Positions 6,437-18,558 of a stretch of 18,558 nucleotides of DNA are shown here, in pieces. The notes below the pieces were generated by a model. The model saw only the letters and a list, made by a program, of their open reading frames with translations. It was not told where the DNA came from and ran no database searches. Origin of the DNA: a virus. Taxonomy: Duplodnaviria; Heunggongvirae; Uroviricota; Caudoviricetes. Position 1 is the stretch's first letter, and the number at the start of each line of letters is the position of its first letter. Both the position numbers and the translations under genes were made by a program. The stretch spans positions 1 through 18,558 of IMG/VR virus record IMGVR_UViG_3300032093_008018. One strand, given 5' to 3'.

Positions 6437-6999
6437 ATATCTCCTTCACGCTCTCTACGTTCACGACGTTCTGCCGCTAACATAAAGACTTTTTCATTAT
6501 CGTTAGTCCAATCTACTGTTTTGGTGGGAATTATAATTCCGCTAGATAAAGTCACACCATTGATAGTATGGGGTTCATTTTCATCATAGGTCCAACCTAA
6601 ACATTTCATCATACGGTGCTTGACTAGCAAGTTTGGACTACGAAATGCTTCTGCATCACGGAAGCCCAACATAACACCAACTTCTGCTACTGCACCAGAA
6701 CGACAAACACCTGCATGGCAATGCACTACAACATTCATCTTATTTTCAAGAGCATGTTGTAAGAGTCCGACCAGTTCGCTGGCCTGTTTCTGGCTGCAAC
6801 GCATAGACTCGTCTAATACTTGATCTTTTTCTTCAACATCTAAAAACTTAAATTGATGTTTCTCGCGAAATTGATATTTTGGCTGGGGGAATTCCATATC
6901 CGGATCCACAATTTGAATCAACATAGAATTTACGCCCGCATCTATATGAAATCCGTTACGAACATCGGCTAGCGATACATTTTGAATCCACGGTGTCAT
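6433..6999 (-). CDS. cysteine-based (PTP/DSP-fold) phosphatase
   Basis: P-loop VVVHCHAGVCRS (HCX5R). Confidence 0.88.
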   Translation of the reverse strand: MTPWIQNVSLADVRNGFHIDAGVNSMLIQIVDPDMEFPQPKYQFREKHQFKFLDVEEKDQVLDESMRCSQKQASELVGLLQHALENKMNVVVHCHAGVCRSGAVAEVGVMLGFRDAEAFRSPNLLVKHRMMKCLGWTYDENEPHTINGVTLSSGIIIPTKTVDWTNDNEKVFMLAAERRERREREGDI

Positions 7000-7015
7000 A
7001 ATTTATCCTTTATAT

Positions 7016-7044
7016 ATTATATTATAAACCCACTTAAAATGCAA
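7016..7044 (-). promoter_or_regulatory. sigma70-like promoter TTGCAT-17-TATAAT
   Basis: near-consensus, upstream of the phosphatase operon. Confidence 0.6.
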
Positions 7045-7051
7045 GGAAAAT

Positions 7052-7133
7052 TGGTACCCCTGCCCGGACTCGAACCGGGAACATCTAACACTCCTTTTGA
7101 GAGAGCTGCCTTTACCAATTTGGCCACAGGGGC
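7052..7133 (-). tRNA. tRNA-Leu(CAA)
   Basis: cloverleaf, anticodon loop CT-CAA-AA, A73, CCA; unstructured 10-nt variable loop. Confidence 0.9.
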
Positions 7134-7134
7134 A

Positions 7135-7141
7135 ATAAATA
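7135..7141 (+). promoter_or_regulatory. T4-late-like promoter motif ATAAATA
   Basis: 30 nt upstream of the plus-strand ORF at 7171; similar motifs at 8193-8199 (-), 82-89 (-) and 16605-16611 (+). Confidence 0.45.
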
Positions 7142-7170
7142 GCATTGAACCATTAGGAGCGAACTAATGA

Positions 7171-7944
7171 ATGGATCCAGTAACGCTATTTGCACTAGCT
7201 AACGGAGCAGTTAAGCTAGTAAAAGAAGGGTGTAAACTCTATAAAGATATAAAGGGTGCCGCGGGCGACGTTAAAGACGTGCTCAAGGATCTGGATGACC
7301 AATTCCATAACAGATACAAAGATCGTACGCCTACAGTTGCAGAAAGAAATCAATATGTAACCGAGCGTAATCGAGTAGTTGAATTAAACAAAAAAGGTGG
7401 AGAAACGACTAATATCTATCAAGAAATTGGTCAACATCTAGGGGCCTATTTTGACAACTATTACAAATGTCTAGCAATATTTGAAGAAGAAGAACGCCGT
7501 AACAAAACAGAAGTTTATACTGGCGAAGATAGTCTTGGTAAACGTGCTCTACAACGTGTTCTAATGAAAAAACAATTGGAACACATGTCTTCTGAACTTC
7601 GAGAAATCATGGTGTATCAGTCTCCTCCAGAATTAGGTGCATTGTGGAGTGATGTTGAAGAAATGATGCAAACGGTTGGAAAGGAACAAAGAGTTGCTAT
7701 TACCAATCAAATGCGCAGATACGAAATAGAGCAGCGCAGAAAAAAAGCCAGGAAAGATAAAATGACACATCAAGCAGTTATTGGTATATCTATCTTAACC
7801 TGTATATTTTTAGTTTCTTATATGTTCTTGGTAATCATACAAGGAAGAATCGAGCGTGACCCAGAACTTGGAAATTGTTGGGTTCCTAAAGGTTCATATC
7901 TTTATAAAAAGTGGACTAATACCGTTTGGGCTACTTGTGAATAA
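7171..7944 (+). CDS. hypothetical coiled-coil protein with a C-terminal transmembrane helix
   Basis: 257-aa ORF with AGGAG RBS; hydrophobic stretch AVIGISILTCIFLVSYMFLVII. Confidence 0.85.
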   Translation: MDPVTLFALANGAVKLVKEGCKLYKDIKGAAGDVKDVLKDLDDQFHNRYKDRTPTVAERNQYVTERNRVVELNKKGGETTNIYQEIGQHLGAYFDNYYKCLAIFEEEERRNKTEVYTGEDSLGKRALQRVLMKKQLEHMSSELREIMVYQSPPELGALWSDVEEMMQTVGKEQRVAITNQMRRYEIEQRRKKARKDKMTHQAVIGISILTCIFLVSYMFLVIIQGRIERDPELGNCWVPKGSYLYKKWTNTVWATCE

Positions 7945-8187
7945 TTATAAATCGTTGGCATCTATACAAGTGCCGCCTTTAAATACATAAACATCTGAAT
8001 CCATACGCAACTGTTCAAATACATGATTGTTTACACACTTGTAAGGATCTTTTTTATTCTGAACAAAATAATAAACGCCGTAACCTAAACCTGCTAATAG
8101 CATGAGGATAGGAATATATTTTAAAAAGGAAATGATTTGCGGCATCATTCCTAATATCTGCGGCAGCTTTTCCAGTAGCTCTTTCAT
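7945..8187 (-). CDS. small membrane protein, 80 aa
   Basis: hydrophobic segment YIPILMLLAGLGYGVYYF; abuts the convergent ORF. Confidence 0.7.
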   Translation of the reverse strand: MKELLEKLPQILGMMPQIISFLKYIPILMLLAGLGYGVYYFVQNKKDPYKCVNNHVFEQLRMDSDVYVFKGGTCIDANDL

Positions 8188-8200
8188 ACTGTTATTTATT

Positions 8201-8276
8201 TGGTGCTGATGAGCGGGATCGAACCGCTGACCTCATTCTTACCAAGAATGTGCGCTACCTACTGTGCCACATCAGC
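8201..8276 (-). tRNA. tRNA-Thr(GGT)
   Basis: cloverleaf, loop TT-GGT-AA, CCA. Confidence 0.95.
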
Positions 8277-8283
8277 TAGTAAA

Positions 8284-8358
8284 TGGCCCGGCTGCTAGGA
8301 ATCGAACCTAGATTTAGGGTTTAGAAGACCCTTGTTCTATCCATTGAACTACAGCCAG
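8284..8358 (-). tRNA. tRNA-Arg(TCT)
   Basis: cloverleaf, loop CT-TCT-AA, CCA. Confidence 0.95.
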
Positions 8359-8363
8359 AAACT

Positions 8364-8437
8364 TGGAGCGGAATATCGGAATCGAACCGATGACTAGAGC
8401 TTGGAAGGCTTTCGTTTTACCATTAAACTAATCCCGC
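8364..8437 (-). tRNA. tRNA-Gly(TCC)
   Basis: cloverleaf, loop CT-TCC-AA, U73, CCA. Confidence 0.95.
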
Positions 8438-8446
8438 ATGAAAAAC

Positions 8447-8475
8447 ATTATACAGTCATTTTGTTTTTGCTGCAA
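8447..8475 (-). promoter_or_regulatory. sigma70-like promoter TTGCAG-17-TATAAT
   Basis: directly upstream of the Gly-Arg-Thr tRNA trio. Confidence 0.55.
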
Positions 8476-8851
8476 TCTCTTTATAACCTGCTCCGGTGGG
8501 GTGAACACCATCTTTTTGTAATTTAGTAATTGGAATTATAACATCATTATAATCTTTTGCAACTAGTTCGACCATCTTTTGTATATGCGGTTTGATAGCT
8601 GGCATTATCCAATATACTTTATCTGCATTTACTCTGTTTCTTAACTGTTGTAATTCCCAGAGTGTGCGAACGCCAGAATGATCGTTAGATCCAAGACTGA
8701 TTATTACAGTTTTAGCTGCTACGGGATTGTCACGATTCTTTTTATTCCAGTCATGACTGTTAATACCGCCTTTACTCAAACTTACACATTCTGGTCTGAA
8801 CTGAGCAGTACCAACAGCAATACTATCACCTACAATTAAACATTCTAACAT
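8456..8851 (-). CDS. SGNH/GDSL hydrolase
   Basis: blocks VGDSIA, SLGSND and DGVHP. Confidence 0.9.
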   Translation of the reverse strand: MLECLIVGDSIAVGTAQFRPECVSLSKGGINSHDWNKKNRDNPVAAKTVIISLGSNDHSGVRTLWELQQLRNRVNADKVYWIMPAIKPHIQKMVELVAKDYNDVIIPITKLQKDGVHPTGAGYKEIAAKTK

Positions 8852-8862
8852 TTAATATCCTT

Positions 8863-8938
8863 TGGAGCGGGTGAACAGTCTCGAACTGTCGACCTTAACT
8901 TTGGCAAAGTTACGCTCTACCAACTGAGCTACACCCGC
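8863..8938 (-). tRNA. tRNA-Gly(GCC)
   Basis: cloverleaf, loop TT-GCC-AA, U73, CCA. Confidence 0.95.
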
Positions 8939-8988
8939 ATTAAATGACACACTACTTATCTCATTGTACGCCATGTGTCAGGGCGAAA

Positions 8989-9141
8989 TTAACTTGGTAC
9001 CACATGAGGAATGTAAGGTACTGCTCTAGGACCACCATACAGTTGTTCAAAAAGTTTTTTAGCCTCTTGCGGTGTATCTGCATAGATTCTTTTCTTTTCC
9101 TCACCACCGGATGTTCTTACAGTTGTTTCATACATTGGCAT
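8989..9141 (-). CDS. small hypothetical protein, 50 aa (MPMYETTV...)
   Basis: AAGGAG 6 nt before ATG 9141; the longer start in the ORF track lies inside tRNA-Pro. Confidence 0.75.
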   Translation of the reverse strand: MPMYETTVRTSGGEEKKRIYADTPQEAKKLFEQLYGGPRAVPYIPHVVPS

Positions 9142-9157
9142 GTCATACTCCTTAATA

Positions 9158-9236
9158 TGGTCCGGGAAGTGGGATTCGAACTCACGATCTCCTGCTCCCA
9201 AAGCAGGCGCTTTAAGCCAGACTAAGCTACACCCGG
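9158..9236 (-). tRNA. tRNA-Pro(TGG)
   Basis: cloverleaf, loop TT-TGG-GA, C1-G72, A73, CCA. Confidence 0.95.
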
Positions 9237-9241
9237 GTAAT

Positions 9242-9317
9242 TGGTTGCAGAGGCAGGATTCGAACCTGCGATTCCCGGCTTATGAGACCGGACGGATGAC
9301 CACTTCCATACTCTGCG
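9242..9317 (-). tRNA. initiator-type tRNA-fMet(CAT)
   Basis: loop CT-CAT-AA with the C1:A72 mismatch typical of bacterial initiators. Confidence 0.88.
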
Positions 9318-9321
9318 TCAA

Positions 9322-9490
9322 ACTTTTATTGATAGTACTCAAGCCTTATAGGACTGAGCAAATTTCTGAGTGGAGTTCGATTCTCCTCATAAGCCATTGC
9401 CCGCAGTTTTATCAGAAGAGAAAGATGGCCCTATTCTTCATGAGTCTGTGCGTCCACAAACGATACCTGCAGAGTGCTATCAATAAAAGT
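9322..9490. ncRNA. candidate structured RNA closed by a 19-bp stem
   Basis: 9322-9340 is complementary to 9472-9490; internal hairpins; strand unresolved. Confidence 0.5.
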
Positions 9491-9688
9491 GTCTAGCCAC
9501 GGTTCCCTGTCCGCCCTAGACTGAGTTGTTACCCTGTCCACTGTATTCTGCTTCTGGCGCCGTTACAGTTCGTACCTAGGATTTCTCAAGTCGCTCCTAA
9601 AGAGAGCCTTGCGGTAGATCCTAAACACCGTACCTTCTATCGCTTGGTAATGGCGCACTTTCTTCCTGAAAAGTGTAACAGGGGTCTG
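9491..9688 (-). ncRNA. candidate multibranched structured RNA
   Basis: non-coding and GC-elevated; nested stems GCGCC-A-TTAC/GTAA-C-GGCGC, TAGGAT/ATCCTA, CC-GCAA-GG, GTCTAG/CTAGAC. Confidence 0.5.
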
Positions 9689-10261
9689 TTAGATCAAACC
9701 TTCTATTTGAAGGACTTGAGCTGCTTCGTCACTGAGTGGAATCTCAGTTTTAATATTAAGCTCAAGAATTTCGTCATTGAGCTTTTGTTTTTGTTTTTTA
9801 AGATTTTTAATCTCGGATTGAATTGCTTTAATCTTTTCCTGTGTCAGTACAGAAGTTGTTACAGTGTCGCCGTAACCATAAATGCGACTACGTGCTTCGT
9901 CTTTGAGACTTTTGATTTTCTCAAGTTTACCTTTAAGTACGTCAAGGCTGGTTACTGCATTGCTGTTAGCAACAGCATCAAGTTGACTAATTCTCTTGTC
10001 AACATAGGCTGCACGAGCCAACTTAAGATCAATGCCGCTTTCGGCATTAGCTTGACCAACTAGGCCGCGAATGTTGTAGAGTACAACCAACAACTTTTCA
10101 CGACGAAGATCAGCTTCTTCTAGTTTTTTTTGTGCAGCAGCAATCTCTGCTTCTACATTTTGAAACTCGTTGAGTTCAAGATTAGTTTCAATCTTGATAT
10201 GTTTGATTGCTTCATTGATGCTGTTTTGTACAGCACTTGCTTTACGTAGTGTGATATTCAT
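9689..10261 (-). CDS. coiled-coil hypothetical protein, 190 aa
   Basis: long helical ORF with AAGGA RBS, overlapping the rpoZ end. Confidence 0.85.
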
Positions 10262-10487
10262 CTGTTTCTTTCCTTTTTTTGCCTTTAACTTTGCTCAAAT
10301 AATCTTTCCAAGTATATTTGCCTTGTTCAATTTCTCTTAGTGCAGTTACAGTTGTTGAGGCATCCTTTCCTTCTACACGTTGCATAGAACCATTTTTTAA
10401 TTCTCTTGCACGTTGTGATGCCGCTAGCACTAAATTAAATCTGTTTCCAATTTGTTCTACTGCTTTTTCTGATGTTACTTTTGCCAT
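10242..10487 (-). CDS. rpoZ: RNA polymerase omega subunit (phage-encoded)
   Basis: [30 protein letters not shown]...[11 protein letters not shown] matches the RpoZ pattern; AAGGAG RBS; start reassigned to ATG 10487. Confidence 0.9.
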
Positions 10488-10499
10488 TGCTCGCTCCTT

Positions 10500-10528
10500 A
10501 TTATAATGACGGTTCGGTAAAAGGTCAA
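10500..10528 (-). promoter_or_regulatory. possible sigma70 promoter TTGACC-17-TATAAT
   Basis: directly upstream of the rpoZ RBS, inside the 3' helix of the upstream RNA candidate. Confidence 0.5.
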
Positions 10529-10783
10529 GTAATAGACCGGACAATTGACAGACAGGATAGCGTATGAGGCATTTCCTTCTACAACGTGCAACAAACAGGC
10601 TACAGAGGCCTGAATATTTCCGATCAGCAATTGACAGTCTAATAAAAGATATTTGGAATCGGTTCACTCAAGCACGACACTTTTCAAGAGTGTTTGCCAG
10701 ATTAAGTCATTGCGGCATGAAGCCACAATATGTCTATTCTCATCTACCTTTTACTTCACCGGTTGCAACATTTCTGTTACAAC
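10512..10783 (-). ncRNA. candidate ~270-nt structured RNA upstream of rpoZ
   Basis: 5' GAAA-capped 9-bp hairpin, long-range helices AAAAGGT/ACCTTTT and AATAGAC/GTCTATT, several internal hairpins, dedicated promoter. Confidence 0.6.
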
Positions 10784-10789
10784 AAAACT

Positions 10790-10818
10790 AGTATATGATA
10801 AAAAAAGACTTTAGTCAA
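10790..10818 (-). promoter_or_regulatory. sigma70 promoter TTGACT-17-TATACT
   Basis: predicted +1 near 10783; the -35 box lies inside the inverted repeat AAAAAGACT-N7-AGTCTTTTT. Confidence 0.75.
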
Positions 10819-10869
10819 GTCTTTTTGAAAAAGTGACAATCTTTTTTGTGTCAGGAAGATTGTCAAACC

Positions 10870-10932
10870 CCGTGAGCGCAGCCCATCCTGTTTTCGCGTC
10901 AGCGGAGGCGGAATATGGTTACAGGTCCGCCT
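10870..10932 (-). ncRNA. candidate two-hairpin RNA with complementary loops
   Basis: AGGCGGA/TCCGCCT hairpin plus a 9-bp bulged hairpin; loop segments CCTGT/ACAGG and CCAT/ATGG are complementary. Confidence 0.5.
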
Positions 10933-10940
10933 TAGATATT

Positions 10941-11015
<75 letters not shown>

Positions 11016-11021
11016 ATATTC

Positions 11022-11720
11022 TTAATTATAATCTTTTTTAAAACTATTGTAAAGTTCTTTAGCTATTAATTTATGACCTTCTATGTTTGGATGGCCGCAT
11101 TTATATTGAAATATTTTATGATGATCTAACATTGAACTAAATTCATCAACCCATTTTAAATTATTTTTATAATAGTCTGGAATAGGCGGACTAGGATTAA
11201 TTCTAGTAAATCTATAATTTATATTCCATTTGTCAAAAAACGATGCTAGAGAATTAAGATGAACTAAAAATTCTGAAATAAACAGTTCATCAGATTCGTA
11301 AAATCTATTTTGTAAGTACTCGTATCTATTTTGTTTAACATTAGGAATTACAACATCTAATTTTATTAAATTAAATCTATCAAATTTTTCATCATAAATT
11401 TCATATCTTGATGGTTCAGTCCATTGTATAACTGCAACCCAGTCTGATAAATTTTCGTTATTTTTTATTTTATCTATAAAAAAATCAAACGTTGTTCTAA
11501 CTATTCTTTGATTTGATCCACACCCAATTGCAAAATTAACTGTTTCTGTACAATTTAATAAATTTGATAAATGAGATGGCCATACAGAAGACAGCCGATA
11601 ATTTTTTTTATCTTGTTCTTCTTTATTAAAAAAACTAGGCCATAATACTCCATCAAAACCTTGTTCTTCTAAGATTCCGCCGCCCCATGTGTGGCTGCAT
11701 CCATTTGCAAATAACTTCAT
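11022..11720 (-). CDS. SGNH-hydrolase-like protein
   Basis: ANGCSHTWG near the N-terminus, GCGSN and C-terminal GHPNIEGH; very AT-rich; ATG 11720 taken as start. Confidence 0.75.
   Translation of the reverse strand: MKLFANGCSHTWGGGILEEQGFDGVLWPSFFNKEEQDKKNYRLSSVWPSHLSNLLNCTETVNFAIGCGSNQRIVRTTFDFFIDKIKNNENLSDWVAVIQWTEPSRYEIYDEKFDRFNLIKLDVVIPNVKQNRYEYLQNRFYESDELFISEFLVHLNSLASFFDKWNINYRFTRINPSPPIPDYYKNNLKWVDEFSSMLDHHKIFQYKCGHPNIEGHKLIAKELYNSFKKDYN
11025..11053 (-). promoter_or_regulatory. sigma70 promoter TTTACA-17-TATAAT
   Basis: directly upstream of tRNA-Asn. Confidence 0.6.
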
Positions 11721-11727
11721 AGACAAT

Positions 11728-11803
11728 TGGTGCTGGAGAAAGGATTCGAACCCTCGACCGCCTGATTACAAATCAGGAGCTCTACCAACTGAGCTACTCC
11801 AGC
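11728..11803 (-). tRNA. tRNA-Thr(TGT)
   Basis: cloverleaf, loop TT-TGT-AA, CCA. Confidence 0.95.
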
Positions 11804-11808
11804 GTTTT

Positions 11809-11970
11809 TTACTTACTGCTCGATTCTAATTGTTTAATACGATTACGAATCTTTGCTTTATCTTTTGGTCTGCTAGATTTCTCTAACATGTCATTGAGTT
11901 GCGCAAGATTTAAAGGACCAAGGCGTGTTTTTCCTGTCTTGGTTTTCATTGGATCACCTTTCTCGCCCAT
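11809..11970 (-). CDS. small basic protein, 53 aa (MGEKGDPMKTKTGKTRLGPLNL...)
   Basis: manually translated ORF, 2 nt after the upstream stop; below the ORF-track cutoff. Confidence 0.65.
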   Translation of the reverse strand: MGEKGDPMKTKTGKTRLGPLNLAQLNDMLEKSSRPKDKAKIRNRIKQLESSSK

Positions 11971-11972
11971 AA

Positions 11973-12101
11973 TTATCGTCCTTGTCCTCTATATGCTTTG
12001 CGAGTTTTATTACTCTTATTCGCAGTAGATGTCTTACTACCATTTTGACAAGTATTTTTGTGAACTCTTTTATGAGTACCTGCTTGACCTTTAACTGCCA
12101 T
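11973..12101 (-). CDS. small basic protein, 42 aa, ending KAYRGQGR
   Basis: manually translated; AAGGA RBS before ATG 12101. Confidence 0.7.
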   Translation of the reverse strand: MAVKGQAGTHKRVHKNTCQNGSKTSTANKSNKTRKAYRGQGR

Positions 12102-12121
12102 AATGTTTCCTTTTTGTTATT

Positions 12122-12197
12122 TGGTGGACCAGACAGGACTTGAACCCGCCACCTTGACCTTGCAAAGGTCCTGCTCTCCCAGATGAGCTACTGGCCC
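12122..12197 (-). tRNA. tRNA-Ala(TGC)
   Basis: cloverleaf, G3.U70, loop TT-TGC-AA, CCA. Confidence 0.95.
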
Positions 12198-12202
12198 TAA
12201 TT

Positions 12203-12406
12203 TCATTTACCGAAATGTTTATCTAACACTTCTAATTTATCTTCATATTCAGCAATGTGTGCTATTTCATTTTCCATTGCAGTCATCCAATCTGTGTGAT
12301 CATGTATAGCAATTGGATTATTTAACATTACTTCTACATTCATGCGATGCTTTTCAACATGACTTTTGAAGTGTGCTTTTGCAGCTTTGAGTAATTGTTC
12401 TCTCAC
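12203..12406 (-). CDS. hypothetical protein, 67 aa
   Basis: ORF with AAGGA RBS. Confidence 0.75.
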   Translation of the reverse strand: MREQLLKAAKAHFKSHVEKHRMNVEVMLNNPIAIHDHTDWMTAMENEIAHIAEYEDKLEVLDKHFGK

Positions 12407-12416
12407 GATAGTTTCC

Positions 12417-12665
12417 TTAGGATTGTTGTACTGCTTTAGATTCTGCTAAACGTTTTTGATACTCTGATTCGGACAATGAATGCCATCCGATGCACTTTCC
12501 AGTTGGACTACGACCGCAGCCACATTTACCAACTTCATTATCGTTTTCTTGCAATTTAGGTGTCATAGTGTTCTTTCTAAAAATATTATCGTAGTTATCT
12601 CTGTAAGATTTTGATGCTGACTTAGTCTGAATGGAATCCCCAGTGACATCATTCTTTGCTACCAT
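12417..12665 (-). CDS. small protein with a possible CDGSH-like/Zn-binding Cys-His cluster
   Basis: CGCGRSPTGKCIGWH motif. Confidence 0.65.
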   Translation of the reverse strand: MVAKNDVTGDSIQTKSASKSYRDNYDNIFRKNTMTPKLQENDNEVGKCGCGRSPTGKCIGWHSLSESEYQKRLAESKAVQQS

Positions 12666-12840
12666 TATCCCTAGATCCTTCGTTTCGTTTACCTTTTTCT
12701 CTCTTGGGCTGAATAGCTGCTGCTAATTCTGCTTGAATAGCACTACGTTTAAATGCGCCACGTTCGTGATTATCAATAATAGTTGCTATCAATCTTTTGG
12801 ACTGCTTACTTAACTTAAAGTTTGGACCTGCTTTTAACAT
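12649..12840 (-). CDS. small basic hypothetical protein, about 63 aa (MLKAGPNF...)
   Basis: AAGGA RBS before ATG 12840; the longer version in the ORF track overlaps tRNAs. Confidence 0.7.
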   Translation of the reverse strand: MLKAGPNFKLSKQSKRLIATIIDNHERGAFKRSAIQAELAAAIQPKREKGKRNEGSRDNGSKE

Positions 12841-12860
12841 TATTTTTCCTTTTATAAACT

Positions 12861-12948
12861 TGGCGGAGAGTATAGGATTCGAACCTATGCGCCACTTTCG
12901 CAACGACGGTTTAGCAAACCGCTGCCTTAACCACTCGGCCAACTCTCC
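12861..12948 (-). tRNA. tRNA-Ser(GCT)
   Basis: type II cloverleaf, loop TT-GCT-AA, G73, CCA. Confidence 0.95.
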
Positions 12949-12953
12949 AATTC

Positions 12954-13053
12954 TGGTGCCTCTGGCAGGACTCGAACCTGCACACGCCGGCTTATCTGGC
13001 CGGTGCTTTGGGGAGATATAAGCTCCCGTCTTTACCAATTAAGCTACAGAGGC
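12954..13053 (-). tRNA. tRNA-Ile(TAT) with a 29-nt variable arm
   Basis: anticodon stem GGGAG/CTCCC, loop CT-TAT-AT; acceptor end GCCT/AGGC-A shared with the Ile(GAT) gene; CCA. Confidence 0.85.
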
Positions 13054-13062
13054 CTGATACGC

Positions 13063-13137
13063 TGGTGCATCGTAATGGAGTCGAACCACTGACATTCGCC
13101 TTGTAAGGGCGACGTTCTACCGCTGAACTAACGATGC
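13063..13137 (-). tRNA. tRNA-Val(TAC)
   Basis: cloverleaf, loop CT-TAC-AA, CCA. Confidence 0.95.
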
Positions 13138-13138
13138 A

Positions 13139-13351
13139 TTAATTTCTTTCTACAACTAATTTATCTAAGTAAACTTTAACTTCATCAAAGTTTTGAAAAA
13201 ACACAGTTTGTCCATCAATGTCGAGTTGCCAAACTTCATCGCCTTCCTGAGGTCCTGGTTTTTGTTCTATAGAAAATTCTATTCCACCAAGAGCTTGTTC
13301 ATATTTCTGCATTAATTCTGCAAATTCAAAAAAGTCAATATCTTCTTCCAT
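13139..13351 (-). CDS. small acidic hypothetical protein, 70 aa (MEEDIDFF...)
   Basis: AGGA RBS overlapping the tRNA-Leu CCA; start reassigned to ATG 13351. Confidence 0.65.
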   Translation of the reverse strand: MEEDIDFFEFAELMQKYEQALGGIEFSIEQKPGPQEGDEVWQLDIDGQTVFFQNFDEVKVYLDKLVVERN

Positions 13352-13360
13352 AATATTCCT

Positions 13361-13437
13361 TGGTGCCCCAGAGGAGACTCGAACTCCTAAAATTTGGCTT
13401 CTAAGACCAACACGTATACCAATTCCGTCACCGGGGC
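13361..13437 (-). tRNA. tRNA-Leu(TAG), short variable loop
   Basis: 77 nt, loop CT-TAG-AA, A73, CCA. Confidence 0.93.
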
Positions 13438-13460
13438 ATAAAAATTTAATTATTGCAGAA

Positions 13461-13646
13461 TTACTTAGTCTTGTCAACAACTTTTCCTATTTTTTCTAAT
13501 GCATCTTTACGCATAAGGAATTGTCTTTCTTGTCCTGGTCGATGAACAACAAGATATTCCACTCCATCTATAGTTTGAACAACCTTAGGATCATTACAAT
13601 AAAATTGTTCACTGTTCATACGATTTTTGAATAATAAGGTTTTCAT
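13461..13646 (-). CDS. hypothetical protein, 61 aa
   Basis: AAGGAG RBS, ORF between tRNAs. Confidence 0.75.
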   Translation of the reverse strand: MKTLLFKNRMNSEQFYCNDPKVVQTIDGVEYLVVHRPGQERQFLMRKDALEKIGKVVDKTK

Positions 13647-13662
13647 GTTAATCTCCTTGTTC

Positions 13663-13739
13663 TGGTACGGATGGAGGGACTCGAACCCTCAGGACTCAGA
13701 TTTTAAGTCTGATATGTATACCAATTCCATCACATCCGC
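13663..13739 (-). tRNA. tRNA-Leu(TAA), short variable loop
   Basis: 77 nt, loop CT-TAA-AA, A73, CCA. Confidence 0.93.
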
Positions 13740-13742
13740 ATA

Positions 13743-13818
13743 TGGTGCTGCCTCTAGGAATCGAACCTAGTTCAACGGCTCTTCAGACCGCCGCTATGAC
13801 CACATCAGCTAAAGCAGC
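13743..13818 (-). tRNA. tRNA-Phe(GAA)
   Basis: cloverleaf, loop CT-GAA-GA, CCA. Confidence 0.95.
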
Positions 13819-13820
13819 AT

Positions 13821-13896
13821 TGGGGTGTCCTACGAGTATCGATCTCGTACTTCCAGTTTCACAGACTAGTATGCAGGCCACTACATTAAGGACACC
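13821..13896 (-). tRNA. tRNA-His(GTG)
   Basis: encoded G-1 opposite C73, loop CT-GTG-AA; atypical T loop ATCGATA. Confidence 0.92.
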
Positions 13897-13898
13897 AT

Positions 13899-13974
13899 TG
13901 GCTGGGGATGATGGACTCGAACCACCGAATGCCGGAATCAAAATCCGGTGCCTTACCAACTTGGCGAATCCCCA
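13899..13974 (-). tRNA. tRNA-Gln(TTG)
   Basis: U1-A72, loop TT-TTG-AT, G73, CCA. Confidence 0.95.
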
Positions 13975-13979
13975 ATAAC

Positions 13980-14056
13980 TGGCCGGTCCTGCAGGATTTG
14001 AACCCACAACCTCCTGTTTCGAAGACAGGTAGTCTCTCCAGTTGACGTAAGGACCG
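13980..14056 (-). tRNA. tRNA-Arg(TCG)
   Basis: loop CT-TCG-AA, A20, CCA. Confidence 0.92.
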
Positions 14057-14067
14057 ATTAAATTGAA

Positions 14068-14288
14068 TTGTAGCCCAGTGTCCTCAGGTTTATCACTAGT
14101 GTTTACGCATACAGAGCCGGACTTCCTTATGCGGAGGTTTTCCAGGACATGTCACTTGAGATACTTAACCAGCGGCAACCAATCTGCGCGGATCTTCCGA
14201 TCCGCTGGGAGTTGAACCCACATCTGCTTTACACTGTATTAAGTTTCGAACCTCTCAACAATGTGTTTTTCTCTTGCTGACGCTACAA
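14068..14288 (-). ncRNA. candidate ~220-nt structured RNA with two T-loop hairpins
   Basis: terminal stem TTGTAGC/GCTACAA; AGG-TTCGAAA-CTT, TGGG-TTCAACT-CCCA and GCGGATC-GGAA-GATCCGC hairpins; not a cloverleaf. Confidence 0.65.
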
Positions 14289-14291
14289 ACT

Positions 14292-14366
14292 TGGTGCCTG
14301 TTCGTGGGAACGATCCACGGACCCTCGCCTTATCAAGACGATGCTCTACCACTGAGCTAAACAGGC
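14292..14366 (-). tRNA. tRNA-Ile(GAT)
   Basis: loop TT-GAT-AA, CCA; atypical T loop ATCGTTC. Confidence 0.92.
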
Positions 14367-14367
14367 A

Positions 14368-14442
14368 TGGTGGTAATGGAAAGAGTTGAACTTTCACTGA
14401 ACACCGTATGAAGGTGCTGCACTACCGTTATGCTACATTACC
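14368..14442 (-). tRNA. tRNA-Met(CAT) elongator (Ile2 not excluded)
   Basis: loop TT-CAT-AC, paired G1-C72; acceptor stem unlike the two Ile tRNAs. Confidence 0.8.
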
Positions 14443-14519
14443 ATATAGAAACACACGAACAACAATGTGCTATGCACCCTGCTTCTATGTGTGCAGGCTG
14501 TGGTTAATATGTTTTTATA

Positions 14520-14594
14520 TGGTAGGAGCACAGGGATTTGAACCCTGGACCAACGGATTAAAAGTCCGCTGCTCTACCGCTGAGCTATACTCCC
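14520..14594 (-). tRNA. tRNA-Lys(TTT)
   Basis: cloverleaf, loop CT-TTT-AA, CCA. Confidence 0.95.
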
Positions 14595-14656
14595 ATATAG
14601 TCCGTATTAAGTTGATTTACTGTGCCAACCTGGACCATACGGGATTCCAGGCGACA

Positions 14657-14677
14657 CTACTGTTTACCTCGTTTCAT
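14657..14677 (-). CDS. possible minigene MKRGKQ followed by a hairpin
   Basis: AAGGAG RBS 6 nt before ATG; TAG after 6 codons; promoter at 14699-14727. Confidence 0.4.
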   Translation of the reverse strand: MKRGKQ

Positions 14678-14698
14678 GTCGTTCTCCTTTGTGAACAT

Positions 14699-14727
14699 AA
14701 TTTACTTTCATTTAAGATTCTTGTCAA
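14699..14727 (-). promoter_or_regulatory. sigma70-like promoter TTGACA-17-TAAATT
   Basis: perfect -35 box with a 17-nt spacer. Confidence 0.55.
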
Positions 14728-14793
14728 TATACAATATTAACACTACTAACATAATAATAACTGCGATCGCCCCATTTTGAGTTCTCCTTATTG

Positions 14794-14868
14794 TGGCGGT
14801 CCCAAGGGGTAACGATCCCCTTCTTCAAGCGTGACAGGCTTGTGTGCGTCCATAAACACTTTGAGACC
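14794..14868 (-). tRNA. tRNA-Asp(GTC)
   Basis: loop CT-GTC-AC, G73, CCA; lacks U8/A14 and has T loop ATCGTTA. Confidence 0.9.
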
Positions 14869-14872
14869 TTAT

Positions 14873-14962
14873 TGGCGGAAGCGGTGAGATTTGAACTCAC
14901 GGACCATTTCTGATCGTCTGTTTTCAAGACAGGTGCAATAAACCGGACTCTGCCACACTTCC
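14873..14962 (-). tRNA. tRNA-Ser(TGA)
   Basis: type II cloverleaf, loop CT-TGA-AA, G73, CCA. Confidence 0.95.
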
Positions 14963-15423
14963 TAGATTTTGTATTTTGTTAAATCTTCAACACGCCAACG
15001 ATAGGCGTATCCTTTACCATACTCATTATTGAAGTAGAGTCTTAATGATGGAGGGTGATCCACATCAAGAATATAAACATGAGTTGAATCATATATAGGA
15101 TCATTGAATCCTATATAAACTTTTGTGTTACATTTACGAGCTATGTTTGTATAGCTGGTGTAAAATTTTTCATCAAATCCAAAATAATTAACGCCTCGGA
15201 TATTATAGACATTTCTTTTTTTAGCATCAATAAAACAGGCTTTGTCTGATTGAACATTGTGTAAAACGTAATCAGGAATCTGATCGTCGTCGCTGTCTCT
15301 ATGAATATCCCTAGTGTCGTGAATAGTCCAATTGGTTTTTGCAAAATGTCTTTGCATCCAATCTTCCATCTTAGTTTCCCAAGTTTCACCAATTTTAAGG
15401 CTTTCTAAAAATCTTTGTCCCAT
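14962..15423 (-). CDS. putative PD-(D/E)XK restriction-endonuclease-like protein
   Basis: E(W)E...PDYVL...FIDAKKR pattern. Confidence 0.6.
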   Translation of the reverse strand: MGQRFLESLKIGETWETKMEDWMQRHFAKTNWTIHDTRDIHRDSDDDQIPDYVLHNVQSDKACFIDAKKRNVYNIRGVNYFGFDEKFYTSYTNIARKCNTKVYIGFNDPIYDSTHVYILDVDHPPSLRLYFNNEYGKGYAYRWRVEDLTKYKI

Positions 15424-15428
15424 ACCTT

Positions 15429-15457
15429 ATAATATAGAAAAAAAATATAAATGTCAA
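15429..15457 (-). promoter_or_regulatory. sigma70 promoter TTGACA-17-TATTAT, predicting a leaderless mRNA
   Basis: the -10 box ends 6 nt before ATG 15423; no SD visible. Confidence 0.65.
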
Positions 15458-15535
15458 TGGAGTGAGGAGTCGGATTCGAACCGACGGTTTTAGAGTTTTG
15501 CAGACTCTTGCATTGGGCCTCTCTGCCATCCTCAC
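15458..15535 (-). tRNA. tRNA-Cys(GCA)
   Basis: loop CT-GCA-AA, U73, CCA. Confidence 0.95.
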
Positions 15536-15541
15536 ATTATA

Positions 15542-15616
15542 TGGTACACGGTAGGGGAATCGAACCCCTCTTACCTGCGTGAAAGGCGGGTGTCCTAACC
15601 GATAGACGAACCGTGC
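15542..15616 (-). tRNA. tRNA-Glu(TTC)
   Basis: loop CT-TTC-AC, CCA. Confidence 0.93.
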
Positions 15617-15670
15617 ATAAAAAGAACCTTTGTGTAGATCTATGACCTAGAGACAAAGGCCGTGTTTCAA

Positions 15671-15745
15671 TGGCATACCCCGAGGGATTCGAACCCCCAC
15701 CAGCGGTTTTGGAGACCGTCATGCTGCCGTTAACACCAGGGATAC
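15671..15745 (-). tRNA. tRNA-Trp(CCA)
   Basis: loop CT-CCA-AA, G73, CCA. Confidence 0.95.
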
Positions 15746-15749
15746 ACAG

Positions 15750-15837
15750 TGGTGGATGGAGTAGGATTCGAACCTACAGCGTTTCTTATGTGGCGGATTT
15801 ACAGTCCGTTGCCTTCAACCATTCGGCACACCCATCC
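15750..15837 (-). tRNA. tRNA-Tyr(GTA)
   Basis: loop CT-GTA-AA, long variable region, A73, CCA. Confidence 0.95.
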
Positions 15838-15900
15838 ATAACAAATAACACTCTCCTAATTGTAACCATTCATTCCTTTTTTTGAAATGATTAGGAGAGT

Positions 15901-15970
15901 GTGTAGTTAAGTATTCTCCGCTATGCTTTTAGACGCCGTCGTAGGGCGAATGGTGAATACTTAACTACAC
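15901..15970. repeat. perfect 16-bp inverted repeat enclosing a 38-nt GC-rich loop domain
   Basis: GTGTAGTTAAGTATTC (15901-15916) and GAATACTTAACTACAC (15955-15970). Confidence 0.85.
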
Positions 15971-16087
15971 TTGGTTTTTACACATCTGCGTTATCGCCAC
16001 AGACTTCTCATCCCCAAGGCCGCCCTCATTAGTAGCAAGATGTTTATAGTGCCCTGCAGGGTCGCGTTCCCTATTACACTTCGCGTT

Positions 16088-16246
16088 CTACGAAAGGTTT
16101 TCCCTACGTTCCCGCACTTTGTCCAGCGAGTAAAGTGCTTTGTTTCTTTCAACTTTAGACTCAATTAGTTTTTTAAACTGGTCTTCAGTTAAAACAAAAC
16201 CTTCACTGTGCTCTACTTTATAACTGTCTTCAATATCAAATTTCAT
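16088..16246 (-). CDS. small hypothetical protein, 52 aa (MKFDIEDSYKVEHSEGFVLTEDQFKKLIESK...)
   Basis: manually translated; AAGGA RBS; first gene after the terminator. Confidence 0.7.
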   Translation of the reverse strand: MKFDIEDSYKVEHSEGFVLTEDQFKKLIESKVERNKALYSLDKVRERRENLS

Positions 16247-16260
16247 TTTATCCTTGCTAC

Positions 16261-16295
16261 AAACAAAAACCCCAGGGTTTTTAATCCTGGGGTCC
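16261..16295 (-). terminator. intrinsic terminator (attenuator)
   Basis: GGACCCCAGG-ATTAAAAAC-CCTGGGGTT followed by TTTGTTT. Confidence 0.85.
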
Positions 16296-16346
16296 TTTTG
16301 AAGTTTGAGTTTACTTTTTCGTTAACTCGTGATCTTCACGGACCCC
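16289..16346 (-). promoter_or_regulatory. predicted antiterminator helix
   Basis: GGGGTCC/GGACCCC, TGAAG/CTTCA and GAGTT/AACTC nested stems; sequesters the terminator 5' arm. Confidence 0.7.
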
Positions 16347-16462
16347 TTACCTGGCACACGATCATTAGATAGGCTAATTGTCTCGCATGACCAATAGGTG
16401 GGCATAAAGCCTGCCTGTTTGGCTATCGATCTAAATTGTCCATGTAATGACGTTAATTTCAT
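16322..16462 (-). CDS. putative 46-aa leader peptide MKLTSLHGQFRSIAKQAGFMPTYWSCETISLSNDRVPGKGSVKITS
   Basis: ATG-to-TAA ORF between the promoter and the terminator; AAGGA about 11 nt upstream. Confidence 0.7.
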   Translation of the reverse strand: MKLTSLHGQFRSIAKQAGFMPTYWSCETISLSNDRVPGKGSVKITS

Positions 16463-16506
16463 TTGCTTCTATATCCTTTTTAGGCTGCACCATGCAGCGT
16501 TTAATA

Positions 16507-16535
16507 ATTATATGGTATGTTTATTTAGCTGTCAA
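16507..16535 (-). promoter_or_regulatory. sigma70 promoter TTGACA-17-TATAAT at the head of the tRNA array
   Basis: perfect consensus. Confidence 0.9.
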
Positions 16536-16629
16536 CAAAAATTTTGCACTCAAATGTGGCAATTTCGCCAAATTCTAAAATCTCACTAGCAAAAAAATAA
16601 CTCACTAAATATTCTAACTTTATTTATAT

Positions 16630-17616
16630 ATGTCAGAATTTCAAAAAATACCTTTTGAGCAAGTTGTAAGATTTGGTCAACGTACAATGTTAGACACTAA
16701 TCTGTTTTCTGTGAGTTGGATCCTAGGAAGATTTTGTAACTACAGTTGTTCCTATTGTTGGCCCTATGCACACAGTGACAAACCCGATCACCAAACCATT
16801 GAAGTTTACAAGAATACAATCGATCAAATAAAAAGTCAAGCCCGTAATAATGGATTTAATCGTTTTCATTGGAGTTTCAGTGGCGGAGAACCCACAGCCT
16901 ACAAAGATCTGTTGCAATTAATACAACATCTTGACGATGGTCCAACTACACCGTACCAAAGTGTACACATGACTACCAATCTCAGCCCGAGCATCAATTG
17001 GTGGAAAAGTTGGGCCAATGCTGTTAGTATGTTGCAGAGAAAGAGTGTTACAGCCAGTTACCATGTAGAACATGCTAAAGAATCAGATTTCGTTAACAAA
17101 TGCTTAAAATTAATGAACGAATATGTTTATGTTACTGTCAATCAAGTAATGGTACCTGAAAAGTTTTACGAATTATATGAACGCTGCGAGAGGTTTCATA
17201 AGAAAGGCATTAATGTAACTTTAAAACCTCAGAGCGATCCTACTGCTAGTTTTGTAGTAAGTGGTTACACTGAGGAAATGATCAATCTAATGCAAACAGG
17301 ATTTCCACAAACAGTAGAGGGAGAACAACTATATCAGATTGCTCTGTACGATCAAGAAGGCAGAGAATATCTGTTTGATCAAGCAGAAAGATTTAATGCA
17401 TTTGGGTTTAACAAATTTAAAGATTGGAAATGTAATTCAGGATACCAAAGTGTCATTATACGAGGTAATGAAGTAAAAAGAGGATACAGTTGCAGAGATT
17501 TAAGATTGGGAACTTTAGAACAGGGATTTAGTTTATTTGGAAATCCTGTTTCGTGCATAACAGAAACTTGTGTAAGTTCTGCAGACAGCAAAATACCAAA
17601 AGAAAAAAATGTTTAA
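16630..17616 (+). CDS. radical SAM protein
   Basis: CNYSCSYC (CX3CX2C), FSGGEP, TTN, and C-terminal Cys cluster CNSG...CITETCVSSAD. Confidence 0.92.
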   Translation: MSEFQKIPFEQVVRFGQRTMLDTNLFSVSWILGRFCNYSCSYCWPYAHSDKPDHQTIEVYKNTIDQIKSQARNNGFNRFHWSFSGGEPTAYKDLLQLIQHLDDGPTTPYQSVHMTTNLSPSINWWKSWANAVSMLQRKSVTASYHVEHAKESDFVNKCLKLMNEYVYVTVNQVMVPEKFYELYERCERFHKKGINVTLKPQSDPTASFVVSGYTEEMINLMQTGFPQTVEGEQLYQIALYDQEGREYLFDQAERFNAFGFNKFKDWKCNSGYQSVIIRGNEVKRGYSCRDLRLGTLEQGFSLFGNPVSCITETCVSSADSKIPKEKNV

Positions 17617-18558
17617 TTTTTCAAATTTAAAACAAATTCATCTTGAAATTACAAACAATTGTCAAGCTAGTTGCCCTATGTGTAATAGAAATATAAATGG
17701 AGGAATAGACAATCCATTGATCAAAATAAAAAATTGGACTATTGATGATTTTAAAAAAGTAATAACTTTAGAAGTATTGCAACAACTTAGTAGTTATTAT
17801 TTTTGTGGCAACTTTGGAGATCCAATTCTTAATAACGATCTAATAAAAATGTGTGAATATAGCAATAATCATTCGCCAAATACCGGAATTGTAATCCACA
17901 CTAACGGTAGTGCTAGATCTGTTGATTGGTGGAAAACTTTAGCGAATGTCCTACCAAAAAATCATAGAGTAGTGTTTGCATTAGATGGTCTATTCGATAC
18001 TCATCAATTATACAGAATAGGAACCAAGTTTGAAACTGTTTTAGAAAATGCCAAAACATTTATTGAAGCCGGGGGTATTGCCGAATGGGTTTTTATAAAA
18101 TTTAAACACAATGAACATCAAGTTGACGAAGCAAGATTACTATCTCAACAATTAGGTTTTAAATATTTTACTCTTAAAAATTCTAGTAGATTCATATTAG
18201 AACCTAAAATAAATGTAATGAATAAACAAAAGAAAATAACCCATTTTATAGAACCAGCATCAGATGTACCTTTAAAATTTATAGATAAAAAGATAATTGA
18301 TAATTATCAACAAATAGTTGACAAATCTATCATTAGTTGCAAGTCTAAAAATGATAAAGAAGTTTACATTGATGCATATGGAGATCTTTTTCCATGTTGT
18401 TGGTTAGCTAGCGTTCCGTACAGTTATATTAATCCAGATGAGGCGTTAGCAGTAAGGCAAAAGATGAGAGAGCAACACGATGAATTGGTAAAGAAATTAG
18501 GATCTGTTAATACTTTTGAAAGATCAATCAAAGAGATCATAGAAAGCCATGCGTATCA
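17609..18558 (+). CDS. radical SAM protein with a SPASM/twitch-like C-terminus (truncated by the window)
   Basis: MFNFSNLKQIHLEITNNCQASCPMC (CX3CX2C), FCGNFGDP, HTNGS, GDLFPCCW; overlaps the upstream stop. Confidence 0.9.
   Translation, partial: MFNFSNLKQIHLEITNNCQASCPMCNRNINGGIDNPLIKIKNWTIDDFKKVITLEVLQQLSSYYFCGNFGDPILNNDLIKMCEYSNNHSPNTGIVIHTNGSARSVDWWKTLANVLPKNHRVVFALDGLFDTHQLYRIGTKFETVLENAKTFIEAGGIAEWVFIKFKHNEHQVDEARLLSQQLGFKYFTLKNSSRFILEPKINVMNKQKKITHFIEPASDVPLKFIDKKIIDNYQQIVDKSIISCKSKNDKEVYIDAYGDLFPCCWLASVPYSYINPDEALAVRQKMREQHDELVKKLGSVNTFERSIKEIIESHAY

Follow-up and report, generated by a model that had tools for sequence, protein, structure and literature searches.

The minus strand of an 18,558-nucleotide (nt) stretch of viral DNA (IMG/VR virus record IMGVR_UViG_3300032093_008018, class Caudoviricetes; the whole stretch is referred to here as the window) carries, between positions 16535 and 16261, a promoter, a short leader open reading frame (ORF), and an overlapping RNA switch ahead of a large tRNA array. 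This element is probably a ribosome-mediated (leader-peptide) transcription attenuator that heads the phage tRNA island and would be opened by shortage of any charged tRNA family. Its anatomy is conserved in divergent relatives, where the helices of the antiterminator and the terminator covary, the leader peptide is under selection for a complete set of 20 amino acids, and a tRNA array invariably follows. The initial annotation had read the locus as a tRNA-sensing attenuator, a reading that appears largely supported by comparison with these relatives; the ribosome footprints, the direction of regulation, and the physiological trigger are what we infer.

The initial annotation placed a perfect sigma-70 promoter, a 46-codon ORF, 26 nt, and a strong intrinsic terminator in this order on the minus strand, and this is the order found. 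The promoter (TTGACA-17 nt-TATAAT, 16507 to 16535) matches the consensus at 12 of 12 positions, with transcription presumably starting near 16500. The 5' untranslated leader (16463 to 16500) contains a small hairpin (16498 to 16484) and a Shine-Dalgarno-like AAGGA (16478 to 16474), located 11 nt upstream of the ATG that opens the leader ORF (P0001, 16322 to 16462). The intrinsic terminator (16261 to 16294) is composed of GACCCCAGG, the 9-nt loop ATTAAAAAC, and CCTGGGGTT, followed by TTTGTTT (-15.6 kcal/mol); a consensus terminator scan missed it because of the length of its loop. The array had been expected to follow the terminator directly. It does lie downstream, with 28 tRNA genes for all 20 amino acids (7052 to 15837), but a 52-codon ORF intervenes, followed by a conserved non-coding stretch of about 250 nt, and the first tRNA gene, for Tyr, is found at 15837. 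The leader thus lies immediately downstream of a promoter and upstream of tRNA genes, with an intrinsic terminator in between, which is the arrangement of leader-peptide attenuators, and the end of the leader ORF takes part in an antiterminator that excludes the terminator through a common strand, GGACCCC.

All the pairings named in the initial annotation for this switch are present. Segment 1, GGGGTCC (codons 39 to 41, 16346 to 16340), is the 5' strand of the base helix of the antiterminator and pairs with segment 2, GGACCCC (16295 to 16289), which is common to the antiterminator and the 5' arm of the terminator, as supported by both folding and covariation. The inner part of the antiterminator, predicted by folding (16299 to 16338), consists of a middle helix, TGAAG (16338 to 16334) with CTTCA (16303 to 16299), and an apical helix, GAGTT (16328 to 16324) with AACTC (16311 to 16307). 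Folded alone, the antiterminator segment gives 7+5+5 pairs and -25.1 kcal/mol, bearing out the proposed 17-bp antiterminator that captures the 5' arm of the terminator; the CCCC of GGACCCC belongs to both structures. The apical helix holds the stop codon TAA (16324 to 16322) in its 5' arm, and a 26-nt spacer follows before GGACCCC.

In the proposed mechanism, host RNA polymerase would start at the consensus promoter, with a ribosome translating the 46-codon leader close behind. A ribosome that reaches the stop promptly would mask the 3' portion of GGGGUCC together with the 5' arms of both the middle and the apical helix; GGACCCC would then be free to pair downstream, the terminator would form, and transcription would end near 16262. 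With a ribosome delayed in roughly the first 36 to 39 codons, or never loading, GGGGUCC would pair with GGACCCC, the more stable three-tier antiterminator would form, and the polymerase would continue into the small ORF, the non-coding element, and the tRNA genes. An untranslated leader would default to read-through. Selection keeps at least one codon per amino acid; most of these occur once, and synonymous codons are non-redundant. With such a complete codon set, the switch should open whenever any charged tRNA family runs short, and the tRNAs of the array would close it again, a negative feedback on tRNA supply.

How widespread is this architecture? A search with the terminator motif matched at least 117 IMG/VR contigs, compared to about 0.4 expected, a second anchor inside the ORF (ATGATCGYACACCAGAG) brought at least 120 further contigs, and two more loci were found via the downstream ORF, for a total of 172 instances with 141 distinct leaders and 138 distinct peptides. 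The peptide filter did not shape this ortholog set, as only a single sequence with the RNA architecture failed it. The ATG-initiated ORF is kept in the 141 distinct orthologs, and 126 of 134 orthologous leaders are preceded by a promoter with at least 11 of 12 consensus matches; 33 orthologs have a -10 box whose end is just 6 to 10 nt from the ATG, making these transcripts nearly leaderless. A same-strand tRNA array is present downstream in all 131 loci having at least 1.5 kb of downstream sequence, beginning 185 to 1171 nt past the terminator (median, 432 nt), and opposite-strand tRNAs occur in none of them. The expectation that orthologous leaders would be found ahead of tRNA arrays is thus borne out in every testable locus, with the ORF, the stop position, and both helices conserved.

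The two alternative structures evolve in concert. Over 132 orthologs, the mean fold energy is -25.0 ± 2.4 kcal/mol for the antiterminator and -14.9 ± 1.1 kcal/mol for the terminator. Covariation was counted on the loci fetched via the ORF anchor, which are unbiased with respect to the terminator. At the base helix pair beside GGGTCC, formed by the base before it and base seven of segment 2, 81 leaders have G:C, 38 have A:U, and 9 have a non-pair, and the terminator partner of the same segment 2 base changes in step (C:G in 87, U:G in 28, and U:A in 17). A second base helix pair shifts from C:G through U:G to U:A among the orthologs. Alignment with MAFFT followed by RNAalifold recovered just the 7-bp base helix and not the inner helices, because the register of the latter shifts between orthologs; the inner hairpin was therefore tested by shuffles and chimeras. 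In the orthologs it is more stable than its shuffles (mean z of -3.4, with 88% below -2) while its apical helix occurs in 54 distinct sequences, and native halves fold with -9.6 kcal/mol compared to -6.3 kcal/mol for chimeras of halves from different orthologs (P = 4e-29). Hence, the compensatory changes anticipated in both helices are present, in the base helix of the antiterminator together with the terminator and also in the arms of the inner hairpin. One natural deletion variant, L264, was found, in which the ORF anchor is directly followed by GGGACCCTGGGGTTTTT and both the antiterminator hairpin and the 5' arm of the terminator are lost.

The most distinctive property of the leader is the composition of its peptide. 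All 20 amino acids appear by codon 36 in the window leader, as the initial annotation stated. In this leader alone, the complete set is modestly unusual (P about 0.035), and since a single sequence gives such weak evidence, the strength of the observation comes from the orthologs. The 138 distinct peptides are mostly 42 to 50 residues long, and the median identity between pairs of them is 43%. All 20 amino acids occur in 124 peptides; of the others, 12 have 19 and 2 have 18. Two leader versions of 35 residues also carry the complete set. The fraction with all 20 amino acids is 0.91 in the 131 aligned peptides, compared to 0.037 for random draws of 46 amino acids from the phage proteome, 0.035 for real windows of 46 amino acids in the phage's proteins, 0.02 for mechanical ORFs of 40 to 55 amino acids in all loci, 0.04 to 0.08 for random sequences with M, D, R, T, P, E, and W given, and 0.20 (maximum, 0.31) when alignment columns are shuffled, which keeps site conservation. 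Completeness therefore lies far over every null model, in agreement with the predicted amino acid diversity, and it holds for 17 of 20 clusters formed at 40% identity or less. Cys, His, Tyr, and Trp are present in 1.1 to 1.2 copies on average.

Part of this composition might be ascribed to a functional micro-protein or arrest peptide with the core W...DRTPE, the terminator marking the end of a gene or the peptide causing TnaC-like, peptide-specific stalling. In 130 of 131 peptides, Trp does fall in the same alignment column, most peptides contain D-R-T-P-E, and the ratio of nonsynonymous to synonymous substitution rates (dN/dS) is 0.44 in the head of the ORF, indicative of some amino acid constraint. 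Over the last 11 codons, however, dN/dS is 1.06, and the C-terminal tail is read in three frames: GGGTCC is found in reading frames 0, 1, and 2 in 61, 66, and 6 leaders, respectively, and its retention across all of them means that the constraint is on the RNA. Despite the varying frame, 120 of 133 leaders have their stop codon 20 to 24 nt past the start of GGGTCC, and 119 of 133 have it 25 to 30 nt ahead of segment 2. The three-frame GGGTCC, the fixed stop position, and the dN/dS of the tail together indicate selection on the RNA and on the end of translation, not on the C-terminal peptide. Furthermore, several lineages do without all or part of DRTPE: L094, L097, L131, and L147 lack TPE or the entire motif, yet retain both the switch and the tRNA linkage. 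The leader peptide matches no Pfam or PHROG family.

The way in which residues are replaced also separates a micro-protein from a complete amino acid set. In ungapped pairs of peptides, a mismatch is seen in 14.7% of comparisons for single-copy residues and in 26.2% for residues present in several copies, and within one and the same amino acid, a residue changes far less often as the only copy than as one of several (1% versus 34% for Asp, 0% versus 32% for Trp, and 10% versus 39% for Tyr), as selection for set completeness predicts and a fixed motif does not. Of 586 differences at single-copy positions, 574 (98%) are compensated by the same amino acid at another site of the partner peptide. 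Cys is spread over 15 alignment columns, and on a leader tree, a rough one built from the same short sequences, Cys shifts position at least 47 times, yet only 2 sequences are without it. This is the pattern predicted by selection for at least one copy of each amino acid, and it may explain the apparent conserved core without a peptide function. We therefore consider a functional micro-protein or arrest peptide quite unlikely.

Codon diversity follows the same trend. The window leader uses 38 distinct codons out of 46, compared to a null mean of 32.1 (P = 0.002), and does not show the clustered codons for one cognate amino acid that are the hallmark of classical attenuators. Orthologous leaders have 35.5 distinct codons, compared to 32.0 under genome codon usage, and the heads of the leaders alone have 29.1, compared to 26.4 under the leaders' pooled usage, an excess also seen in 31 representatives. 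Codon diversity thus exceeds the null for the window leader, for whole orthologous leaders, and for heads alone, as had been proposed. The window leader does use all six Ser, all four Gly, and all three Ile codons as well as AGA, ATA, CTA, and CCC, as the initial annotation listed. Genome-rare codons are enriched in the leaders (GAG, 93% versus 17%; also CCC, GCG, and GGG), and the structured tail accounts for part of this enrichment. The further claim that every anticodon type of the array except Leu(CAA) has a readable codon in the leader needs correction: Leu(CAA) is indeed an exception, but Arg(TCG) also has no codon under standard wobble, as the sole CGN codon is CGT.

A relative with a split tRNA island links the composition of a leader to the genes behind it. 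G001, the record behind L105, is 342 kb long and 95% complete and has 27 tRNA genes. Its leader (start at 126734) contains neither Glu nor Tyr, and its sole Asp is located after GGGTCC; the 20 tRNAs behind this leader represent 17 amino acids, missing exactly Asp, Glu, and Tyr. The tRNAs for these three amino acids are found just upstream in a Ser-Glu-Tyr-Asp-Met block behind a second, unrelated leader (L293:922-1082, plus strand; G001 125115 to 125275). This second leader is a near-leaderless 34-codon ORF with four Tyr codons and has a switch of its own, in which GCGGGTC of the ORF is complementary to GACCCGC of the terminator GACCCGCC/GGCGGGT. The probability that the two residues missing from the first leader both fall by chance among the three missing from its array is 3/190, in this one lineage. 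G001 also has a mini-cluster of Met, Leu-UAA, and Arg-UCU tRNAs (L288:1440-1500, plus strand; about 118830 to 118873) with a consensus promoter directly upstream and no leader, showing that not all tRNAs of these phages are placed behind an attenuator.

A device of the same anatomy could be less discriminating. As a general coupling or translation-capacity sensor, it would report whether any ribosome follows the polymerase, be it affected by ribosome availability, host shut-off, or translation inhibitors, and the composition of the leader would be irrelevant. The stability of the antiterminator exceeds that of the terminator by about 10 kcal/mol, so that an untranslated leader would lead to read-through, and the 33 nearly leaderless orthologs fit this idea, as does the response to general translation stress of the upstream ORF (uORF) of whiB7 (PMC10274678). 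Such a sensor leaves unexplained that 90% of the divergent leaders are complete, that lost single-copy residues reappear elsewhere, and that the G001 leader is without amino acids whose tRNAs are not downstream; we consider it unlikely.

Several observations nevertheless weigh against an attenuator opened by shortage of any charged tRNA family, or limit what it could control. In the ORF, neither a pause hairpin nor an anti-antiterminator was detected, and RNAalifold applied to a codon alignment of the ORF head predicts no structure. The attenuator model gives no explanation for two elements conserved at the nucleotide level, the 17-nt block ATGATCGYACACCAGAG (16351 to 16367; GTGTGCC in the window), where third codon positions are included, and the terminator loop (AYUAAAMAC; 16277 to 16285). 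All 20 amino acids are present before GGGTCC in 77% of leaders, but with a margin of 9 to 12 nt or larger before GGGTCC, just 16 to 38% of leaders are complete, and the last sensing codons (Thr-Pro-Glu) lie near the estimated limit of the ribosome footprint. The codons of the leaders cover the array anticodons slightly above the null (0.92 versus 0.87), and with an anticodon match barely over this null, the signal would be mainly at the amino acid level. Three related leaders are without Leu though their arrays encode tRNA-Leu, and for some amino acids of the L214 leader, ARAGORN detected no tRNA downstream. The array of the window also contains same-strand sigma-70 promoters with 11 of 12 consensus matches (15457 to 15429, 13477 to 13449, 11053 to 11025, and 10528 to 10500, minus strand), and only the tRNAs for Tyr, Trp, Glu, and Cys precede the first of them. 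Relatives have 1.9 same-strand internal promoters per 6 kb of array, compared to 0.1 in shuffles. Later tRNAs could thus be transcribed without the switch, which would gate one of several entries to the array. Finally, four metatranscriptome runs yielded only short contigs of relatives, which cannot show ends, strand, or level and may stem from DNA carry-over.

One of these contigs bears on a further alternative, namely, that the promoter-to-terminator transcript of about 240 nt acts in trans as a small RNA, perhaps besides attenuation. The contig, 216 nt long, covers just 16480 to 16269, a weak hint from material that shows no ends, strand, or level. A strong promoter combined with an efficient-looking terminator would suit a small RNA, and conservation at third codon positions equals that at first and second ones (0.69, 0.67, and 0.71). 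A precedent for a small RNA derived from an attenuator is reported in rnTrpL (PMC6614838). No target or conserved single-stranded seed was identified for the phage transcript, however, and the maintained ORF, start codon, and stop position indicate translation, which makes an action in trans very unlikely. In relatives without the small ORF, contigs in two of the RNA runs join the terminator to the downstream element, from which no conclusion on expression is drawn.

The first gene behind the switch is the 52-codon ORF (16088 to 16246), which has an AAGGA 7 nt before its ATG and belongs to a conserved family of 50 to 60 amino acids with the motif ...LT.EQ..KLIQDKFERAR.... It is present behind the switch in about two thirds of the orthologs (a ribosome-binding site and ATG within 60 nt in 106 of 166 loci). 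This family has no match in PHROGs, no lead in a protein atlas, and only a sub-threshold match in Pfam (DUF244, E = 0.058, 13.7 bits versus a cut-off of 22). The conserved non-coding element (15890 to 16082) has BLAST matches in 45 relatives and a fold z of -2.6; it contains a 16-bp inverted repeat, and in some relatives it is located directly after the terminator. A search against Rfam at permissive thresholds gave no family for the switch region or for the non-coding element. Of the tRNA genes in the array, 27 were identified by ARAGORN; the other one, of 97 nt (12957 to 13053, minus strand), matches the Rfam tRNA model with 57.5 bits and is absent from the ARAGORN output.

Two overlapping radical SAM genes (16630 to 17616 and 17609 to 18556, plus strand), the second with a SPASM-like end, are divergent from the leader promoter, and their orthologs at 70 to 75% identity are found in more than 200 IMG/VR contigs. 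Being small, equipped with aromatic residues, and adjacent to these genes, the leader peptide could be taken for the precursor of a ribosomally synthesized and post-translationally modified peptide processed by the two divergent radical SAM/SPASM enzymes. The leader is absent from all 80 loci with an orthologous radical SAM gene, with flanks of up to 4 kb searched, whereas a tRNA array is found behind 131 of 131 leaders, and the peptide and the radical SAM genes are encoded on opposite strands. The neighborhood is thus incidental, and for lack of a conserved linkage between leader and radical SAM genes, a precursor role was rejected as extremely improbable.

Within an IMG/VR virus record of 82.5 kb, with a CheckV completeness of 23%, the window takes up the first 18.5 kb, and near-identical DNA is carried by lake and freshwater metagenomes. 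A paper on a "moraphage" (PMC12619734) was considered and set aside, as it deals with another lineage. In GenBank, no phage shares DNA with positions 15800 to 16700 by megablast and blastn, and tblastn with the leader peptide yields chance-level matches only; no cultured phage is known to carry the element. The nearest cultured relatives of a neighboring protein are PA5oct-like Pseudomonas jumbo phages, with about 32% identity.

Three known regulatory systems resemble this element. Classical attenuators (trpL, hisL, leuL, thrL, and the ilvGMEDA leader) repeat codons of one to three amino acids, control biosynthetic genes, and mostly have four segments with a 1:2 pause hairpin. They share with the phage element a promoter-proximal short ORF, an intrinsic terminator, a mutually exclusive antiterminator built in part from the 3' end of the leader ORF, and the proposed role of ribosome position as the determinant of the fold. 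In contrast, the phage leader has three segments, about one codon per amino acid, no detected pause hairpin, and tRNA targets; the genes downstream of its switch are the small ORF, the non-coding element, and the tRNAs, not amino acid biosynthesis or synthetase genes. In T-box riboswitches (Rfam RF00230), a specific uncharged tRNA is bound directly and no translation is involved. Like the proposed phage switch, they sense tRNA charging and choose between terminator and antiterminator ahead of translation-related genes, but the phage element has a conserved ORF and no T-box match: no specifier loop or T-box was found in Rfam searches at an E of up to 10 (15840 to 16560) or up to 1 (6800 to 17000).

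The closest published system is the uORF attenuator of whiB7 (wblC) in mycobacteria and other Actinobacteria, which is activated by knock-down of amino acid biosynthesis genes, tRNAs, and tRNA synthetases for 18 of 20 amino acids (PMC10274678). As in the phage, a fairly long and diverse uORF precedes a choice between antiterminator and terminator, and slow translation leads to read-through (PMC10274678). The uORF of Mycobacterium smegmatis encodes 19 of 20 amino acids, that of Mycobacterium tuberculosis is without several, and the uORF is enriched in Ala (PMC10274678); the phage leaders have 2.7 copies of Ala per about 47 residues on average, as expected from the proteome. In a whiB7 uORF without Trp or His codons, the response to the matching starvation is significantly reduced for Trp and absent for His (PMC10274678), an experimental proof of principle that the composition of this uORF decides which starvations are sensed. 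The whiB7 system differs in being cellular, in controlling a WhiB-family transcription factor, and in that completeness is not conserved, and it has no sequence relationship with the phage leader. In the phage, the complete set itself is under selection, and what the switch senses would be the very product that it regulates.

In the literature, we found no account of leader-peptide control of tRNA genes, in phages or otherwise, nor of a leader selected for a complete amino acid set. The statement in the initial annotation that no example had been described therefore holds for tRNA genes and for the selected complete set, but not for broad amino acid sensing by a leader, for which whiB7 is an example (PMC10274678). 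The class of mechanism is already known; new are its scope, with 20 amino acids under selection, its target, tRNA genes, and its viral setting. A constraint on the amino acid set of a peptide rather than on its sequence is an unusual signature, which can be searched for elsewhere. As a compact element of about 240 nt with a consensus sigma-70 promoter, the leader may also become a tool that could report decoding stress for any amino acid in laboratory bacteria.

On balance, we lean toward a view of the leader as a 20-channel charged-tRNA gauge, through which the virus would run its complete replacement tRNA set as a homeostat and the scarcest tRNA family would set transcription of the whole array. 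Scarcity might arise through codon usage mismatch, host tRNA decay after shut-off, or host anticodon nucleases, and the composition of the leader would coevolve with the tRNA genes behind it, as in G001. Host anticodon nucleases as the trigger, which the initial annotation had put forward, are pure conjecture. Why large phages carry tRNA arrays and when these are expressed are still debated, and a cis-acting sensor that opens the array upon slow decoding would tie tRNA supply to expression.

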